Notes: generated from the letters alone by a model not told the origin. A stretch of 64,000 bases of DNA from Nitrospira sp. (GCA_037445435.1 JBBIKN010000005.1:7420-71419); one strand, 5' to 3'; counted from the first letter of the stretch, positions 9,920-17,493 are shown. Translations and numbers: made by a program.

Positions 9920-10125
9920 TCATCGCTTCTTCCTGTTGAGCAGGCTGCCGGATCGCACCTGGCAGGCCAGGACGTAGCAAATCCACCCTTGTGGCCATGA
10001 GGCTGGTGATTTCCGCCGCGTGGTAGGAAGGCGAACACTCGACAATTTCCATTCCTCGCCAGCGGCTCGTGTAGGCGATCTGGAAAAACTTCAGCACTTC
10101 ACGCAGCAGAAACCTACCCGGCTCT
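9920..10125 (-). pseudogene. displaced 3'-end relic of an arginase-family (guanidinase-like) gene
   Basis: About 205 nt align by hand to the 3' end of the intact gene at 13246-13453 (about 27 mismatches, one 3-nt and one 1-nt indel). There is no 5' part. Removing 1 nt after GTG restores VICYVLACQVRSGSLLNRKKR*, compared with VICDVLACQVRSGNLLNRKKR* in the intact gene. Confidence 0.75.
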
Positions 10126-10163: not shown

Positions 10164-13073
10164 TTGAGTCCCGACTCTCTAGAGGCTTATCGTGGTATAC
10201 GGAGGGGTATCAAGAAGGATCCCGTGGCCAGCATCGCGGACATCGCCACACAAGCCGATCAGGACCATATCCAGCGTCTGCTGGACGTCGTGCGCAACCT
10301 GGTGATGGAAGTCCATCCCGGCAGCACCGCTGCACATGCGGTCAACTTGGACAGCATTCTCGACCGGGAGTTGGGACTCGACAGTTTGTCGCGCGTCGAA
10401 CTATTTGCGCGTGTGGAACGAGAGTTCAACGTTGATCTTCCGGAGTCGTTGCTGGCCGAGGCGCAAACCCCCGGCGATTTTCTGGGCACAATCCTAAAAG
10501 GCGTGGGCACCAGGCTCACGCCTGCTGCCGAACGCAGTCTCCGCCAGGACCTGAAAGCCGGCGCTGCGATTCCAGCGGGGATACAGACCCTCCCCGACGC
10601 GCTCGCCTGGCAAGCCGCACATCACGGAGAGCGCACCCATATCCACTTGTATGCGGAAAGCGAGGCGATCGAGCCGATTTCCTACCGAACATTGTATAGA
10701 GATGCCCAGGCTCTGGCGGTAGGCCTGCACCGAACGGGTTTCAAACCCGGCCATGCCGTAGCGCTGATGCTCCCGACCGGCCGAGAGTTTTTCTCCGCCT
10801 TTGCCGGAATCCAACTGGCCGGCGGCATTCCCGTGCCGATCTATCCCCCGACTCGGCTGAGCCAGCTCGGCGACCACTTGCTCCGGCAGCAGGGTATCCT
10901 GACCAACGCCGAGGCGGTGGCCTTGATCACCCACCCCGAGGCGAAGCGCGTGACGCATGTGCTGCAGGCGAAGGTGCCTTCCATTCAACGCGTGGCCACG
11001 ACCTTGGATCTGCAAGGCGACCCCGATGCCTTTTCCAGACCGTACGTCGCGGCGCAAGACACGGCGTTTCTCCAATACACGTCGGGCAGCACGGGGAATC
11101 CCAAAGGCGTGCTGCTGACCCATGCCAATCTGCTGGCCAATATCCGGGCGATGAGCTCCACGCTTCACGTGACGCCCGACGACGTCTTCGTGAGTTGGCT
11201 GCCGCTGTATCACGATATGGGACTGATCGGAGCCTGGCTGGGAGCGCTGTGCTGCGGGTACCCCTTGGCGATCATGTCGCCCTTGAGATTCCTCAGCAAA
11301 CCGTCTCGCTAGCTGAAGGCCATCCACCGCCATGGCGGCACGCTGTCAGCCGCCCCGAACTTCGCCTACGAATTGTGCGCCACGCGGATCAGCGACCAGG
11401 AGATCGAGGAGCTGGATCTGAGTTTGTGGCGCGTAGCCCTCAACGGAGCGGAGCCGGTCAGTCCGGAAACGATCGAGCGATTCACCTCTCGATTCTCACG
11501 TTGCGGCTTCCGCAAGGACGCAATGTTTCCGGCATATGGCCTGGCCGAATCCACGGTTGGATTGACGTTTCCGCCGCCCAGTCGAGAGCCGGTGATCGAC
11601 TACATCAAGCCTGAACCATTCCGCTCGGAAGGCATGGCCGTCCCCGCCTCGACCGACGAGAAAGACGCCTTGCGCTATGTGTCTTGCGGGTCCCCTCTTC
11701 CGGATCACCGGATCCGCATTGTGGACGAGGAGGGGAAGGCGTTGCCGGACCGCAGGCAAGGACATCTTCAGTTTACAGGTCCCTCCGCAACGGCCGGCTA
11801 CCATCGCAATCCCGAAGAGACCGCACAGATCAAGAAGGGGGAATGGCTGGATTCATTCGATCTGGCCTATGCCGTCAACGGAGAGATCTTCATTACGGGC
11901 CGTGCCAAGGATCTCATCATCCGCGGCGGCCGCAATCTGTACCCGTACGATCTGGAGTTGGCGATCGGCAATCTACCCGGTATGCGCAGCGGCTGTGTGG
12001 CGGTGTTCGGCAGCCGTGAGGCGCACGCCGTCGGAGAGCGGCTGATCGTGGTCGCGGAAACCAAGGAGCAGGACCCGGTGATACGCGAGCGGCTGAGAGG
12101 CCAGATCACGGTGTTGGCTACCGAGGTGGTGGGGTCACCGCCTGATGACATCGTGCTGGCGTCACCCCATGCCGTGCTGAAAACGTCCAGTGGAAAGATC
12201 CGCCGCGCCGCCATGCGCGACCGATATGAACGGGGCCTTATCGGGATCGAGCCGCGCAGCGGTTGGGGGCAGCTGGCGCAGGTCCAAGGCCTCGGTCTTG
12301 AGATCCGAGCACGGCATGCGCTGCGTTCGTTCGCCAGAGGGTTGTTCGGCATCTACGCGGTCGGTGTCTTTGCGATCTTGGGCACAATCACATGGCTCCT
12401 CGTGGCGGCGCTGCCGGCTGGACGAACCGCCCGCAGAGCGGCACAAACGTCGGCTCGAGCGCTATTTCGTGCCTGCGGTCTCCGCCCACGTGTCGACGGA
12501 TGTGAGTATGTGAGGCCGGACTCGCCTCAGATTCTGGTGTCCAATCACGCCAGCTACCTTGACGGCCTCCTGCTGTTCGCGTGGTTGCCCGGCCGCCCAC
12601 GATTCATCGTCAAGGGCGAACTCACGAGAGTGTGGGTCTTGCGCACGTTTCTCGAGAAAATCGGTGCCGAATTCGTCGAGCGCTTTGCATTCGACAAGAG
12701 CGTCGAAGACGCCGAACGGCTCGCGCGTCGGCTACAGGCAGGAGAAAGCCTCGTATTCTTTCCGGAAGGGACGCTTCGCCGTCCTCCCGGTCTCTTGCCA
12801 TTTCGGTTAGGAGCCTTCTCCATCGCAGTTCGCAACCAAACACCTCTCCTCCCGCTGGTCCTCCGTGGCACCCGGGCGGTACTGCCGGACGGCAACTGGC
12901 TGCCACGGTACGGCAGGCTTTCGATCACAATCTGTCCGCCACTTGAGCCCGAGGGCCGAGATTTCCAGGCGGCGCTGACCCTCCGCCATGCGGCACGCTC
13001 CAGCATGCTGCGATTCTTGGATGAGCCGGATATTCATGACCCGACGGAAACGGCCCTCACTCGTCAGATTTGA
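10164..13073 (+). pseudogene. ACP / fatty acyl-AMP ligase (AMP-binding) / lysophospholipid acyltransferase fusion gene interrupted by one in-frame TAG (11310-11312)
   Basis: ORFs 10164-11312 and 11373-13073 are in the same frame. The 60 nt between them also read as protein (PSR*LKAIHRHGGTLSAAPNFAYELC). Motifs: PP-binding LGLDSLSRVEL, AMP-binding YTSGSTGNPKGV, PlsC-type NHASYLD and FFPEGT, with TM helices between the ligase and acyltransferase parts. Confidence 0.8.
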
Positions 13074-13245: not shown

Positions 13246-14394
13246 TCAACGTTTCTTCCGGTTGAGCAGGTTTCCGGACCGCACCTGGCACGCCAGGACG
13301 TCGCAGATCACCCGTGTGGCCATGAGGCTGGTAATCTCCGCCGCGTCGTAGGGTGGCGAACATTCCACGATTTCCATACCCGCCAGCGGTTTCGTGTCGG
13401 CGATGATCTGGAGGAACTTCAGCACTTCGCGCGGCAGAAACCCGCCCGGCTCCGGCCAACCGGTGCCCGGCACGAAGGCGGCGTCCAAGCAATCGACGTC
13501 GAAGCTCAACCACACCGCATCCACACCATCAAACGCTACTTCAAGCGCCTGTTTCGCGGCATTCTCGATCCCCATTTCCACGCAGTCGGTCACGGTCATG
13601 ATCGTGGTCTGACGTTCACGGCCGGCCTTCACGCCGGGTCTGGGCGCTTGCCAGCCGCCGATGCCAATCTGCACGAGATTTTTCGCCGGCACGTTGGGGA
13701 TATTCGTCGCATGGAACCAGGGCGTGGTATGCATGCGCTCATCGAGATCGGTCTCCTGCGTGTCCACATGTCGATCGAAGTGCAGGATGCCGAGCTTCTT
13801 GCCGTTCATATTCTGCGCCACACCCCGCACGGTGGCAAATCCCAAGGAATGGTCTCCGCCGAGAACCACGGGAAACGCGCCGCTGGCATAGACATGCCCC
13901 ACGCCCTTACTGACTTGATCGAAGGTCTTTTCGATGTTGCCGGGAATGGTAAACACGTCGCCCACATCGCAGATGGACACGGATTCTCGCAGATCCACGC
14001 CGAGCTCGAAACTATAGGTTCCGTAGAGCGCCGAGATCTTGCGGATGCCTTGGGGTCCGAACCGGGTGCCGGCACGATAGGTCGTGCCGCCATCGAACGG
14101 CGCGCCAAGAATGGCAACATCGTATTGGCCGCACTTGCGGACATCTTCGACATACGGAGCCTTGATAAAAGTATTGATGCCAGCAAAGTGCGGCAGTTCT
14201 CCGCGGCTGAACGTGGGGATCCGGCGATCCTTGATGGAATCGGCACCCGGCAGGCCCAATTCTAGGCCTCGGGCCACTTCCTCTTCATATTTCGTGGTCG
14301 GCAGCAGCGCCTCGGCTTCGACCGCATACTTCGCTTCCGGACCATATTTGTCATGCAGTGGAACCTTGCCTTGGTATGTTCTCTTTTTCGCCAT
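13246..14394 (-). CDS. arginase/agmatinase-family ureohydrolase, predicted guanidine hydrolase (guanidinase)
   Basis: Ureohydrolase metal-site motifs FDRHVD, GGDHS and SFDVDCLD. Start set at ATG 14394, preceded by GAAAGGAG. Second gene of the operon behind the guanidine-I riboswitch. Confidence 0.85.
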   Translation of the reverse strand: MAKKRTYQGKVPLHDKYGPEAKYAVEAEALLPTTKYEEEVARGLELGLPGADSIKDRRIPTFSRGELPHFAGINTFIKAPYVEDVRKCGQYDVAILGAPFDGGTTYRAGTRFGPQGIRKISALYGTYSFELGVDLRESVSICDVGDVFTIPGNIEKTFDQVSKGVGHVYASGAFPVVLGGDHSLGFATVRGVAQNMNGKKLGILHFDRHVDTQETDLDERMHTTPWFHATNIPNVPAKNLVQIGIGGWQAPRPGVKAGRERQTTIMTVTDCVEMGIENAAKQALEVAFDGVDAVWLSFDVDCLDAAFVPGTGWPEPGGFLPREVLKFLQIIADTKPLAGMEIVECSPPYDAAEITSLMATRVICDVLACQVRSGNLLNRKKR

Positions 14395-14478
14395 GATGCT
14401 CCTTTCTAGTAGATGAATGGATTCTGACTTTGAGTGAAACCCATGTTGCGACACGAGACCTGATGAACGACCTGTCTT

Positions 14479-15957
14479 TCATTCTTGAGTTGGTGCGGAC
14501 TCTCTCGGACTCAGCGAGACGTCGCTCCTTGCCGATCTCACGACCAGGAGATACAGCGTGGTGCCCCCCAGAATGCTTCCGAGAACCAACGGCACGGCCC
14601 AGAGTTGCCACCAGGGGGCGTTGGGAGAGGTGGCATAGGGACGTGGCCACGCGATATTGACGAATTCAAACACCGACCAGAGAAACGCCGCCGTGTTGAT
14701 CAGCAATCCCCACGAGCCCAGCTTCAGGTGACCTAACGAGGGATCCCAGCGACCTGTGAGACGAGTGTAGAGTCCCACCCCCGTGGTCATCGCAAACATG
14801 GCGTACACCCCCCCCGTGCCGAACGCCAGGACCGTGGCGACCGCTTCATCGTTGAGCCCGAAGAGCAGGCCGAGCGTCGCCAGCAGCACCGTGAACAGCA
14901 CGGCGTTCCGAGGAGCGCCGGCGGGGGTGACCCGACTGAGAACGGCCGGCATACTGCCTTCGCGGGCCATGGAAAACACGATACGAGACGTGTACTGGAC
15001 CATGGAGGATCCACAAGCCAGGAATGCGACCATGACGATGGCCAGAAATGGGGTTTCCGCCCAGGCTCCCAAATTTTGGACGATCACTGGAGTGACGGGG
15101 TCGGACGTGGCGCTCGTCTGCTGCAACGTATCGCGGTTAAAACTCAGGGTCAGTGCGGCAGAGTTGAAGAGCACCACACCTCCCACCATGCAGAGAGAGA
15201 AGAAGATCGCACGCGGCACCATCCGCTTGGGCTCATGCGTTTCTTCGGCGATGGTCGAGCAAGCATCGAAGCCGATGAACGCCCACCCGGAAATCGCGAG
15301 CGCCGCTAGAAACGCAGCGGTCTGGCTGGGGGCGGTTCCTGTCCCAAGATGGGCGAACAGCTCGGAAAATTCATGTTGCCGAAAAAAGAGGAACAACAGC
15401 AGCGCGACACCGAACGAGCCGACGATTTCCGCATAGACCCCCAGGGAAATGAGGAACTTGAATACAGAGACATGGACCAGGTTGATGGCGGTGCAGATCA
15501 GCATAAACACCGCCCCCCAGATCACGAGGGTGACGCCTGTTCCACCTCCTGATCCGAAAAAAATCGCCAGCCAGATTCCCCCGGTGTAGGCCGTCGTGGT
15601 GAGCATCGCGATCGTGGAACTCACGTAGATGGCCCCGGCGTACGTGCCGGTTGTTGCGCCTCCGAGCTGCCTGGCCCATTTATACGCGCCTCCTGCGATT
15701 GGGATCTGCGACGACAGCTCCGCATACACGGTTGCGACCAGCAACTGCATCACTAAGCAGAGCGCCAGCGCCGCAAACCAACCGCCGCCCGTTACGACCG
15801 TCTGGACCCCGATAATGGCGTAGAGCCCTGCAACCGGTGAAACGGTCGCGAACCCGATGGTCAGGCTGTTCCAGAGACTGAGACTACGGCGGAGTGTCGC
15901 GGGAGCGCCCGTAGCGGTGGCAGGAAGGGCGTCATCCGGAATTTCTTTAGTTAACAT
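14479..15957 (-). CDS. APC-superfamily amino acid/polyamine-type permease (candidate guanidine importer)
   Basis: 492-aa ORF that is hydrophobic throughout (about 12 TM), with APC-like blocks (SLWNSLTIGFATVSP, GGAYKWA). First gene downstream of the riboswitch. AGGAAGGA precedes the ATG. Confidence 0.8.
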   Translation of the reverse strand: MLTKEIPDDALPATATGAPATLRRSLSLWNSLTIGFATVSPVAGLYAIIGVQTVVTGGGWFAALALCLVMQLLVATVYAELSSQIPIAGGAYKWARQLGGATTGTYAGAIYVSSTIAMLTTTAYTGGIWLAIFFGSGGGTGVTLVIWGAVFMLICTAINLVHVSVFKFLISLGVYAEIVGSFGVALLLFLFFRQHEFSELFAHLGTGTAPSQTAAFLAALAISGWAFIGFDACSTIAEETHEPKRMVPRAIFFSLCMVGGVVLFNSAALTLSFNRDTLQQTSATSDPVTPVIVQNLGAWAETPFLAIVMVAFLACGSSMVQYTSRIVFSMAREGSMPAVLSRVTPAGAPRNAVLFTVLLATLGLLFGLNDEAVATVLAFGTGGVYAMFAMTTGVGLYTRLTGRWDPSLGHLKLGSWGLLINTAAFLWSVFEFVNIAWPRPYATSPNAPWWQLWAVPLVLGSILGGTTLYLLVVRSARSDVSLSPRESAPTQE

Positions 15958-16085
15958 GACAGTCCTTCCTGACTTGGCACCAGGTCAGACTGTTCTGGTA
16001 AGGCTTTATGGGATGGGAATAAACATGCATAACGAACCTCCAACTGGAAAGGTTACTTCCCAAAAGGCCATGTACCTCAGTACAT

Positions 16086-16190
16086 GATCTCCCGGGCTTT
16101 TATCCCTCCGTGGAGCCTCGTTATGCGAGGCCGAAAACTCTTGGACCAGACGCTCCTTCCGACAAGGAAGGAAGCCGGAACCCTAGTTTT
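16086..16190 (-). promoter_or_regulatory. guanidine-I riboswitch (ykkC-yxkD class, subtype 1) aptamer
   Basis: The minus strand reads AACUAGGGUUCCGGCUUCCUUCCUUGUCGGAAGGAGCGUCUGGUCCAAGAGUUUUCGGCCUCGCAUAACGAGGCUCCACGGAGGGAUAAAAGCCCGGGAGAUCAU. It contains the conserved CUAGGGUUCCGG, GGUCCRAGAG and ACGGAGGGAUAAAAGCCCGGGAGA blocks with paired spacer helices. It lies about 125 nt upstream of the permease ATG. Confidence 0.85.
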
Positions 16191-16212
16191 CCTTTTGGAA
16201 CACTTTATGGAT

Positions 16213-16241
16213 ATGCTATTGCTTGGCCATACCAAAGTCAA
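16213..16241 (-). promoter_or_regulatory. candidate sigma70-type promoter for the riboswitch operon
   Basis: Minus strand TTGACT (16241-16236), 17 nt, TAGCAT (16218-16213), ending about 20 nt upstream of the aptamer. Pattern match only. Confidence 0.35.
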
Positions 16242-16413: not shown

Positions 16414-17493
16414 GTGCTAGGATGCGACCCGATCCCTTACACAGATGCTATCTGCGCGGATGCCATGACTTCCCCGGCTGCCTCACCAGCTTCTGACTAT
16501 CGTTTTCTACTCCTCATGATCCCCGCGCTGTTCATCCTGCTGCTTGCAGCCGGCTTATTTGAATTCAGTTCGAACATCACGGTGGACAATTTTCACAATC
16601 TCACGAGCCGGCTGATGCACCGGGCTTCAGAAGCGTCGAAGGAAACTTTCGACCCTACTCATTTTCTCGTAGAGGTCAAATCCCGGTATATCTGGCTCAC
16701 GACCGTAGTGGTGGCGCTGGTAGCCGGACTGTACGCCTTCATCGTATGCGGGATGATCATTTACCAGTCTCATCCACGACCGCGGTTCGTGGTGGTCACA
16801 GCAGTCGGGATCTTTTTGGCCTCAATCGGGCTCGCCTTTCTCTGGGCACTGGATGAGACGCACGCGCTCTATCGAGCCGTGTTTAGCTTCAGCTACGATA
16901 ACTTGCGGCAGGCCGGGCCTAAACGAATCAGCCCGGATCTCTTACGCTATGCCATGATTGTCGTGTCTATCGTCAACGTGCAGGCCATGGTTGTGCCGGT
17001 GGTGGCCCTGCTTGCCGCCTGCAGCACGCTCGCACCGCCGAGCTCGGGCGATAAGCCGAACCCTCAGTTTTGTGCGATGCAGTTGACGCGGTTAAAGGAA
17101 GTGCTGACTGCGGCCTCCGCTATTCTCGTAGCCGGAGTCTTGCACATGGGAGCCTGGCTCAGGTGGCCGGCGGCGTTGATCGCCGACCAGGCTGCGCACG
17201 AAGCCGTGCTGGGGGCAGCCTTGGCCATCACCCTCTTTTGGGGCGTCACTTTCACGTTGATGTTGGTCTCGACATATCTCCCAGCCGCGTTCCTTCTCGC
17301 GAAGCGGGCCCAGGCTCTGCTGCAAGACAACTCAAATAAGGAATCCGTCTCGGCACCGGAAGAATGGCTCAAGGAGCACGGTCTTTTTCTCTCCCTGCAG
17401 GATCATTTCCCCCAGTTCGGGCTCATGCTCGCCCCCTTGCTCGCCAGCCCCTTGAGTTCTCTACTGCTTGCCCCGCTGACGCCGACGGGCTAA
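16414..17493 (+). CDS. multi-pass membrane protein, function unknown
   Basis: 359-aa ORF with several long hydrophobic segments. GTG start at 16414; an alternative in-frame ATG is at 16465. No family motif recognised. Confidence 0.55.
   Translation: MLGCDPIPYTDAICADAMTSPAASPASDYRFLLLMIPALFILLLAAGLFEFSSNITVDNFHNLTSRLMHRASEASKETFDPTHFLVEVKSRYIWLTTVVVALVAGLYAFIVCGMIIYQSHPRPRFVVVTAVGIFLASIGLAFLWALDETHALYRAVFSFSYDNLRQAGPKRISPDLLRYAMIVVSIVNVQAMVVPVVALLAACSTLAPPSSGDKPNPQFCAMQLTRLKEVLTAASAILVAGVLHMGAWLRWPAALIADQAAHEAVLGAALAITLFWGVTFTLMLVSTYLPAAFLLAKRAQALLQDNSNKESVSAPEEWLKEHGLFLSLQDHFPQFGLMLAPLLASPLSSLLLAPLTPTG

Follow-up and report, generated by a model that had tools for sequence, protein, structure and literature searches.

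The region described here occupies positions 13246–16241 on the minus strand of a 64,000-nucleotide (nt) stretch of DNA from Nitrospira sp. (GCA_037445435.1, JBBIKN010000005.1:7420-71419), hereafter the window. In the direction of transcription it contains a guanidine-I riboswitch aptamer, an open reading frame (ORF) for an APC-superfamily permease and an ORF for an arginase-family hydrolase, an arrangement that resembles the guanidine utilisation operon of comammox (complete ammonia-oxidising) Nitrospira. The coordinates of the genes and of the elements within the leader are collected in Table 1.

Table 1. Genes and leader elements of the operon region, in window coordinates
Feature	Position	Strand	Basis and details
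Sigma-70-like promoter	16213–16241	minus	Consensus scan; TTGACT, 17 nt, TAGCAT; predicted start a few nt upstream of the aptamer
Guanidine-I (ykkC subtype 1) aptamer	16087–16197	minus	RF00442, full length, 89.8 bits
Conserved hairpin UCAUGUAC-N4-GUACAUGG, then CCUUUUGG	16059–16095	minus	Extendable by pairing of the P3 3' strand and tail (CCGGGAG) with CUUUUGG
Conserved Shine-Dalgarno sequence GGAGG and AUG (16030–16028), GGAGG-N-CGUUAUG	16028–16041	minus	Complementary to the P2 loop and 3' strand (16112–16125)
Upstream ORF, 27 codons, stop TAA 9–11 nt inside the permease ORF	15947–16030	minus	Comparison of 29 loci
Local hairpin covering the permease Shine-Dalgarno sequence (GGAAGGA, 15963–15969)	15959–15993	minus	Minimum free energy and centroid folds
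APC-superfamily permease, putative guanidine importer, 492 aa	14479–15957	minus	PF13520
Predicted guanidinase, GdmH family, arginase-fold guanidine hydrolase, 382 aa	13246–14394	minus	Matches to 9FEK and 7ESR/7OI1

The aptamer and the two genes

An earlier note on this DNA had placed a ykkC subtype-1 aptamer at 16086–16190 on the minus strand, and that call is essentially right. The Infernal match to RF00442 scores far above the gathering score of 63 (cmscan, E 1.3e-15, model positions 1–107 of 107) and is the only one in the 3.81-Mb, 235-contig genome. A scan of a genome collection with the hydrolase returned 80 loci, and across the related loci both P1 and P2 of the aptamer carry compensatory changes: the P2 and P3 cells of the related leaders are 99.4% paired, with the compensatory changes in P2, and an AU/GC swap in P1 is seen in 9 of 21 sequences. 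The aptamer motif occurs as a GGGCC variant in L012, L013, L029 and L055. In most related loci the promoter elements CTTGACTTTGG...AATAGGAT are conserved, and their distance from the aptamer is unchanged. The aptamer is predicted to bind free guanidine and to turn expression on; indirect evidence is that guanidine raises the transcripts of orthologous genes (PMC11410670).

As the earlier note had described, a permease and a ureohydrolase with intact metal-binding motifs lie downstream. The hydrolase ORF (13246–14454) matches PF00491 (Arginase) with 257 bits, and the metal-ligand motifs GGDHS, HFDRHVD (FDRHVD) and DVDCLD of the arginase fold are all present. Its true start is the ATG at 14394, behind GAAAGGAG, which gives a protein co-linear with the N. 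inopinata enzyme. In a comparison with all PDB sequences the hydrolase aligns end to end with 9FEK (865 bits; 11 mismatches in 382 residues as counted from the alignment, approximately 97% identity), which is the N. inopinata guanidinase, crystallised and assayed by Palatinszky et al. (2024, Nature, PMC11410670). Synechocystis GdmH (7ESR/7OI1) is matched with 571 bits over 360 residues, the next-best PDB match is proclavaminate amidinohydrolase at 178 bits, and agmatinases reach at most 127 bits. By bit score the hydrolase thus groups with the characterised guanidinases; this grouping is based on PDB bit scores and NCBIfam cut-offs rather than on a tree, which is not needed because of the 97% identity to a characterised enzyme. 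Residues equivalent to Thr105, His222 and Trp313 (N. inopinata numbering), by which guanidinases are defined (PMC11410670), are all found in the hydrolase. For the N. inopinata enzyme, work on purified protein has shown Ni-dependent hydrolysis of guanidine and the presence of Ni and Mn (PMC11410670), and the window enzyme, as its close counterpart, is predicted to carry out the same Ni-dependent hydrolysis of free guanidine.

It is highly improbable that the hydrolase is instead an agmatinase or guanidino-acid hydrolase, served by a permease for a guanidino compound or an amino acid rather than free guanidine: its best NCBIfam names are indeed agmatinase models, the PDB depositor name is 'putative agmatinase 2' and the Km for guanidine in vitro is high, but the hydrolase falls below both agmatinase cut-offs (201.6 versus 302 and 164.2 versus 174.3), is nearly identical to an enzyme for which guanidine hydrolysis was shown, carries the three signature residues and is preceded by a riboswitch of a class described as very substrate-specific and as not recognising guanidino-group metabolites (PMC11410670).

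The permease matches PF13520 (AA_permease_2) at 130.6 bits and PF00324 at 98.2 bits, with approximately 12 hydrophobic segments in a crude hydropathy scan, and is 72–93% identical to the permeases at the same position in other comammox loci. Among NCBIfam models it comes closest to TIGR03428 ('permease, urea carboxylase system'), where a score of 159.9 bits against a cut-off of 740.45 makes it a relative rather than a member or equivalog. The 'urea carboxylase' system of this model is, we take it, what is now called guanidine carboxylase. The operons of that carboxylase resemble the window in having an APC-family permease tied to guanidine catabolism and in being under ykkC control; they differ from it in that guanidine is carboxylated in an ATP-dependent reaction rather than hydrolysed. 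In the window the permease lies directly downstream of the guanidine-I riboswitch and beside the guanidine catabolic gene, the position that marks the guanidine permeases of ammonia oxidisers. APC permeases adjoin guanidine genes in most ammonia oxidisers, and the permease is still called a putative transporter (PMC11410670). The earlier note was correct that an APC permease takes the place of the ABC importers or SMR exporters; the point is already stated in PMC11410670, and such a permease is also not really unusual in this context, given the TIGR03428 match and the APC permeases by guanidine genes of most ammonia oxidisers.

More than 20 Nitrospira loci also have this gene order, and we are confident that the window carries the operon described for guanidine utilisation by N. 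inopinata and other comammox Nitrospira. The window operon and the published one (PMC11410670, 9FEK) share the order riboswitch, APC permease, guanidinase and the signature residues of the enzyme; in both, ABC transporters and nickel chaperones are absent from the vicinity, and urease is encoded elsewhere. The window operon differs in belonging to another species-level genome (a metagenome-assembled genome, MAG, of 235 contigs), in 11 enzyme substitutions, and in a 3.1-kb insertion downstream that is bracketed by a duplicate of the 3' end of the guanidinase gene. Among riboswitch-bearing genomes a permease was found beside the riboswitch in 56 of 56, with guanidinase next in 46 of 56; ABC transporters and, 'unexpectedly', Ni chaperones are missing from the comammox guanidine region (PMC11410670). 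In these last respects the system departs from that of Synechocystis sp. PCC 6803, whose Ni-dependent arginase-fold guanidine hydrolase GdmH (Sll1077; 7ESR, 7OI1) is likewise encoded under a guanidine-I riboswitch, but in an operon with an ABC importer and HypA/HypB-type accessory genes in place of an APC permease without chaperones (PMC11410670 refs 17, 18). The N- and C-terminal extensions also differ (PMC11410670).

The pathway can be outlined as follows. A sigma-70-type promoter would drive the leader carrying the riboswitch; guanidine binding would fold the aptamer and allow expression of the two downstream genes; the APC permease would import guanidine, probably without ATP; and a hexameric arginase-fold guanidinase would convert it to urea and ammonium. 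Urease, encoded elsewhere in the genome, would free further ammonia for ammonia oxidation. The import of guanidine and its splitting to urea and ammonium, as proposed in the earlier note, correspond to the experimentally supported function of the near-identical N. inopinata system: N. inopinata grows on guanidine, and transcripts of both permease and guanidinase rise upon guanidine addition in sludge (PMC11410670). A 2025 review repeats the points of that study (PMC12186494). Two points weigh against this assignment: the permease is so far only a putative guanidine transporter, and the Km determined with purified N. inopinata enzyme is about 14 mM, which led the authors to raise the possibility of a side reaction (PMC11410670).

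The operon has been known in exactly this form since 2024, and the window is one more genome that has it. The leader analysis presented below suggests the only addition to the published system, namely a conserved upstream AUG and possible translational control.

The leader between aptamer and permease

Leaders of related loci were aligned, first 21 and then 29 including the window. Three elements on the 3' side of the aptamer are nearly invariant: a hairpin with a following pyrimidine tract, a Shine-Dalgarno sequence with an AUG (hereafter, SD-AUG), and a hairpin over the Shine-Dalgarno (SD) sequence of the permease. The first hairpin can be extended to a 14-pair helix in which 100% of cells are paired in the 21 leaders; for the 29 leaders, with the 65:99 pair included although it is mostly unpaired, the figure is 94.7%. 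Substitutions in the pyrimidine tract are U-to-C changes found only opposite G (pairs 67:97 and 69:95), while the U opposite the A is invariant; this is the behaviour of a paired strand and not of a terminator U-tract.

The SD-AUG element is predicted to form a 14-bp helix with P2, both in the minimum free energy fold (z = -4.3) and by RNAalifold. Of the cells of this helix, 96.5% are paired in the 29 leaders, compared with at most 51% for slid controls; double changes occur at two pairs, one of which also covaries within P2. The SD sequence is kept with correct spacing in 29 of 29 leaders. In 22 of the 29 loci, the window among them, the AUG opens an upstream ORF (uORF) of 25–30 codons that ends 7–11 nt past the AUG of the permease. 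In five others (L004, L012, L013, L029 and L055) the conserved AUG is itself the permease start, and in L002 and L017, two loci without the permease, an ORF of 79–84 codons begins at it. The AUG-to-AUG distance takes one of three values in 21 loci (71, 77 or 83 nt); in the window it is 73 nt. For the hairpin over the permease SD, an equivalent CAGACC/GGUCUG stem was seen by eye in related leaders. The unconstrained fold of the leader is approximately 12.6 kcal/mol more stable than the fold in which the aptamer is enforced.

From these patterns of conservation and predicted pairing we tentatively propose, as a possibility somewhat short of even, that the comammox guanidine-I riboswitch is a translational switch and not a terminator. 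In the absence of guanidine, the aptamer would pair through its 3' half with downstream sequence, and the 3' strand of P2 would serve as an anti-SD and anti-AUG strand that buries the conserved start site; guanidine would lock the aptamer and free this site. In most lineages this start would now belong to a uORF, of 27 codons in the window, and its translation would run through the hairpin that masks the ribosome-binding site of the permease and so unmask it. The induction of transcripts seen in sludge would be secondary, by way of Rho or mRNA stability. The same logic, in which a riboswitch governs translation of a short uORF linked to a downstream gene, is reported for the B12 riboswitch of M. 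tuberculosis ppe2/metE (PMC11260477), a case that concerns a different riboswitch class and organism. The leader, the uORF and a terminator are not discussed in PMC11410670.

Several points count against translational control of this kind. Covariation is thin, with double changes in three cells, and there is little sequence variation by which to test the pairing; L048 has one A-C mismatch; the SD-AUG element is only about 20% unpaired in silico even with the aptamer enforced; and, with its 73-nt spacing, the uORF of the window does not share the frame register of the other 21. Nor would translational control by itself account for the transcript-level induction reported in PMC11410670, for which Rho or mRNA decay, for instance, would have to act as well.

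A somewhat unlikely alternative is that the conserved SD-AUG and the uORF are relics of a once longer permease N-terminus, kept as an anti-aptamer strand and not translated. The use of this AUG as the permease start in five loci would fit such an origin, as would the poor conservation of the uORF peptide and the frameshift of the window uORF relative to the others. An untranslated relic sits less well with the single frame relation held by the 71, 77 or 83 nt spacings in 21 loci, with a stop that always falls 7–11 nt past the permease AUG, and with a properly spaced SD in all 29 leaders.

Less likely again is a classical transcriptional ON switch, in which the short hairpin at 16068–16087 and CCUUUUGGG would form an intrinsic terminator that guanidine binding prevents. 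This is the usual mode of guanidine-I riboswitches (review PMC12186494), guanidine raises the transcript levels of both genes in sludge (PMC11410670), and conservation is high in both the hairpin and the pyrimidine tract. However, a terminator scan found no terminator in the leader; the four sites that it returned are all within coding sequence, no more than shuffled sequence would be expected to give. Ligand binding would not prevent the 8-bp stem, because this stem has no overlap with the aptamer. The U-tract has only four U, its U-to-C changes fall exactly opposite the G residues of GGGAG, as in a paired strand, and once the tract is paired no U-run follows the extended stem in the window (GGGAAGUAACC).

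Programmed frameshifting from the uORF into the permease was also considered and was dropped, as no slippery heptamer was seen and the permease has its own SD sequence. Metatranscriptome data came from one run with a small share of matching words, as contigs only; these include relatives of the operon, with one contig bridging aptamer and permease. Such contigs cannot show transcript ends and are neutral between termination and translational control.

Related loci and flanking genes

Among the loci returned by the scan, the clade-A-like Nitrospira loci share the gene order of the window. In L031–L054, whose guanidinases are 87–93% identical, the permease is often found downstream of the guanidinase on the opposite strand, so that the two are convergent; loci at 89–93% identity show this arrangement. 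A search by regular expression picked up an aptamer motif ahead of the permease only in L040 and L048. For many clade-B-like loci this search, made by regular expression alone, gave no such motif, and no absence is claimed. In two loci (L002:5556-7146 and L017:5606-7143) most of the permease is deleted and the riboswitch leader adjoins the guanidinase almost directly. Similar joints occur in sludge metatranscriptome contigs, linking window positions 14802/14811 to 16087/16082 with short sides of 29–30 nt.

One complete Nitrospira chromosome (OZ245008.1, which holds both L004 and L037) has two guanidinase genes, 98% and 93% identical to that of the window; the first stands in a riboswitch-permease triad and the second shows neither aptamer motif nor permease within 6 kb. 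Guanidinases that share 81–86% identity with the Nitrospira enzyme are found in Pseudonocardia, other actinomycetes, and Dehalococcoidia or other Chloroflexi (L056–L080), an unusually high conservation across phyla. In the actinobacterial and Chloroflexi loci an aptamer motif often lies approximately 200 nt upstream of the enzyme.

Downstream of the operon, the last ~205 nt of the guanidinase gene are present twice as direct repeats (9920–10124 and 13246–13452, approximately 86% identity), which bracket the 3.1-kb segment. This segment contains one acyl carrier protein, fatty-acyl-AMP ligase (FAAL) and acyltransferase gene on the plus strand, apparently split (10164–11312 and 11373–13073): the AMP-binding domain extends across two ORFs in the same frame, at profile positions 2–241 and 282–384. 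The same split pair is found beside the guanidinase in L017. Upstream of the riboswitch, a divergent gene (16414–17493, plus strand) encodes a hydrophobic protein of 359 residues with no match in Pfam or NCBIfam, which is syntenic in 10 related loci with 72–83% identity.

Host genome, nickel supply and significance

The window genome is a comammox MAG, with amoB at a contig start and two copies of amoC. No amoA was found in the genome by PF02461; since amoB starts 131 nt from the contig end, amoA was probably lost at the contig break, and the null result is not evidence against comammox. The genome also encodes UreC (983 bits), followed by UreF, UreG and UreD.

No hypA/hypB-like gene is present among the window ORFs between 8026 and 20377, where the flanks were examined; the earlier note had remarked upon this, and the point is already stated in PMC11410670. 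The only HypA of the genome belongs to a NiFe-hydrogenase cluster on another contig (G000 contig C16; L083 4903-19303), in the order 4Fe-4S subunit, NAD-binding subunit, small and large NiFe subunits, HycI, HypA and HypF. HypD and a HypE-like AIRS-domain protein lie approximately 5–6 kb further downstream in this cluster, which has no HypB. Nor does any HypB-type GTPase score above cut-off in the genome, the best HypB-like match being UreG. The genome has nickel chaperones for other enzymes and none dedicated to the guanidinase. UreG, from the urease operon on C165, is the only CobW/HypB/UreG-type GTPase near a nickel enzyme, and it and the Hyp proteins of the hydrogenase cluster are candidate moonlighting nickel donors for the guanidinase.

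A hydrogenase-linked HypA together with UreF, UreG and UreD, without HypB, narrows the candidates for the route by which the guanidinase is loaded with nickel. The operon itself lets complete nitrifiers live on guanidine as sole source of energy and nitrogen, as established in 2024. If the proposed translational control proves true, it would add a guanidine-I case of riboswitch-controlled uORF translation and would guide the reading of reporter and induction experiments in comammox Nitrospira.

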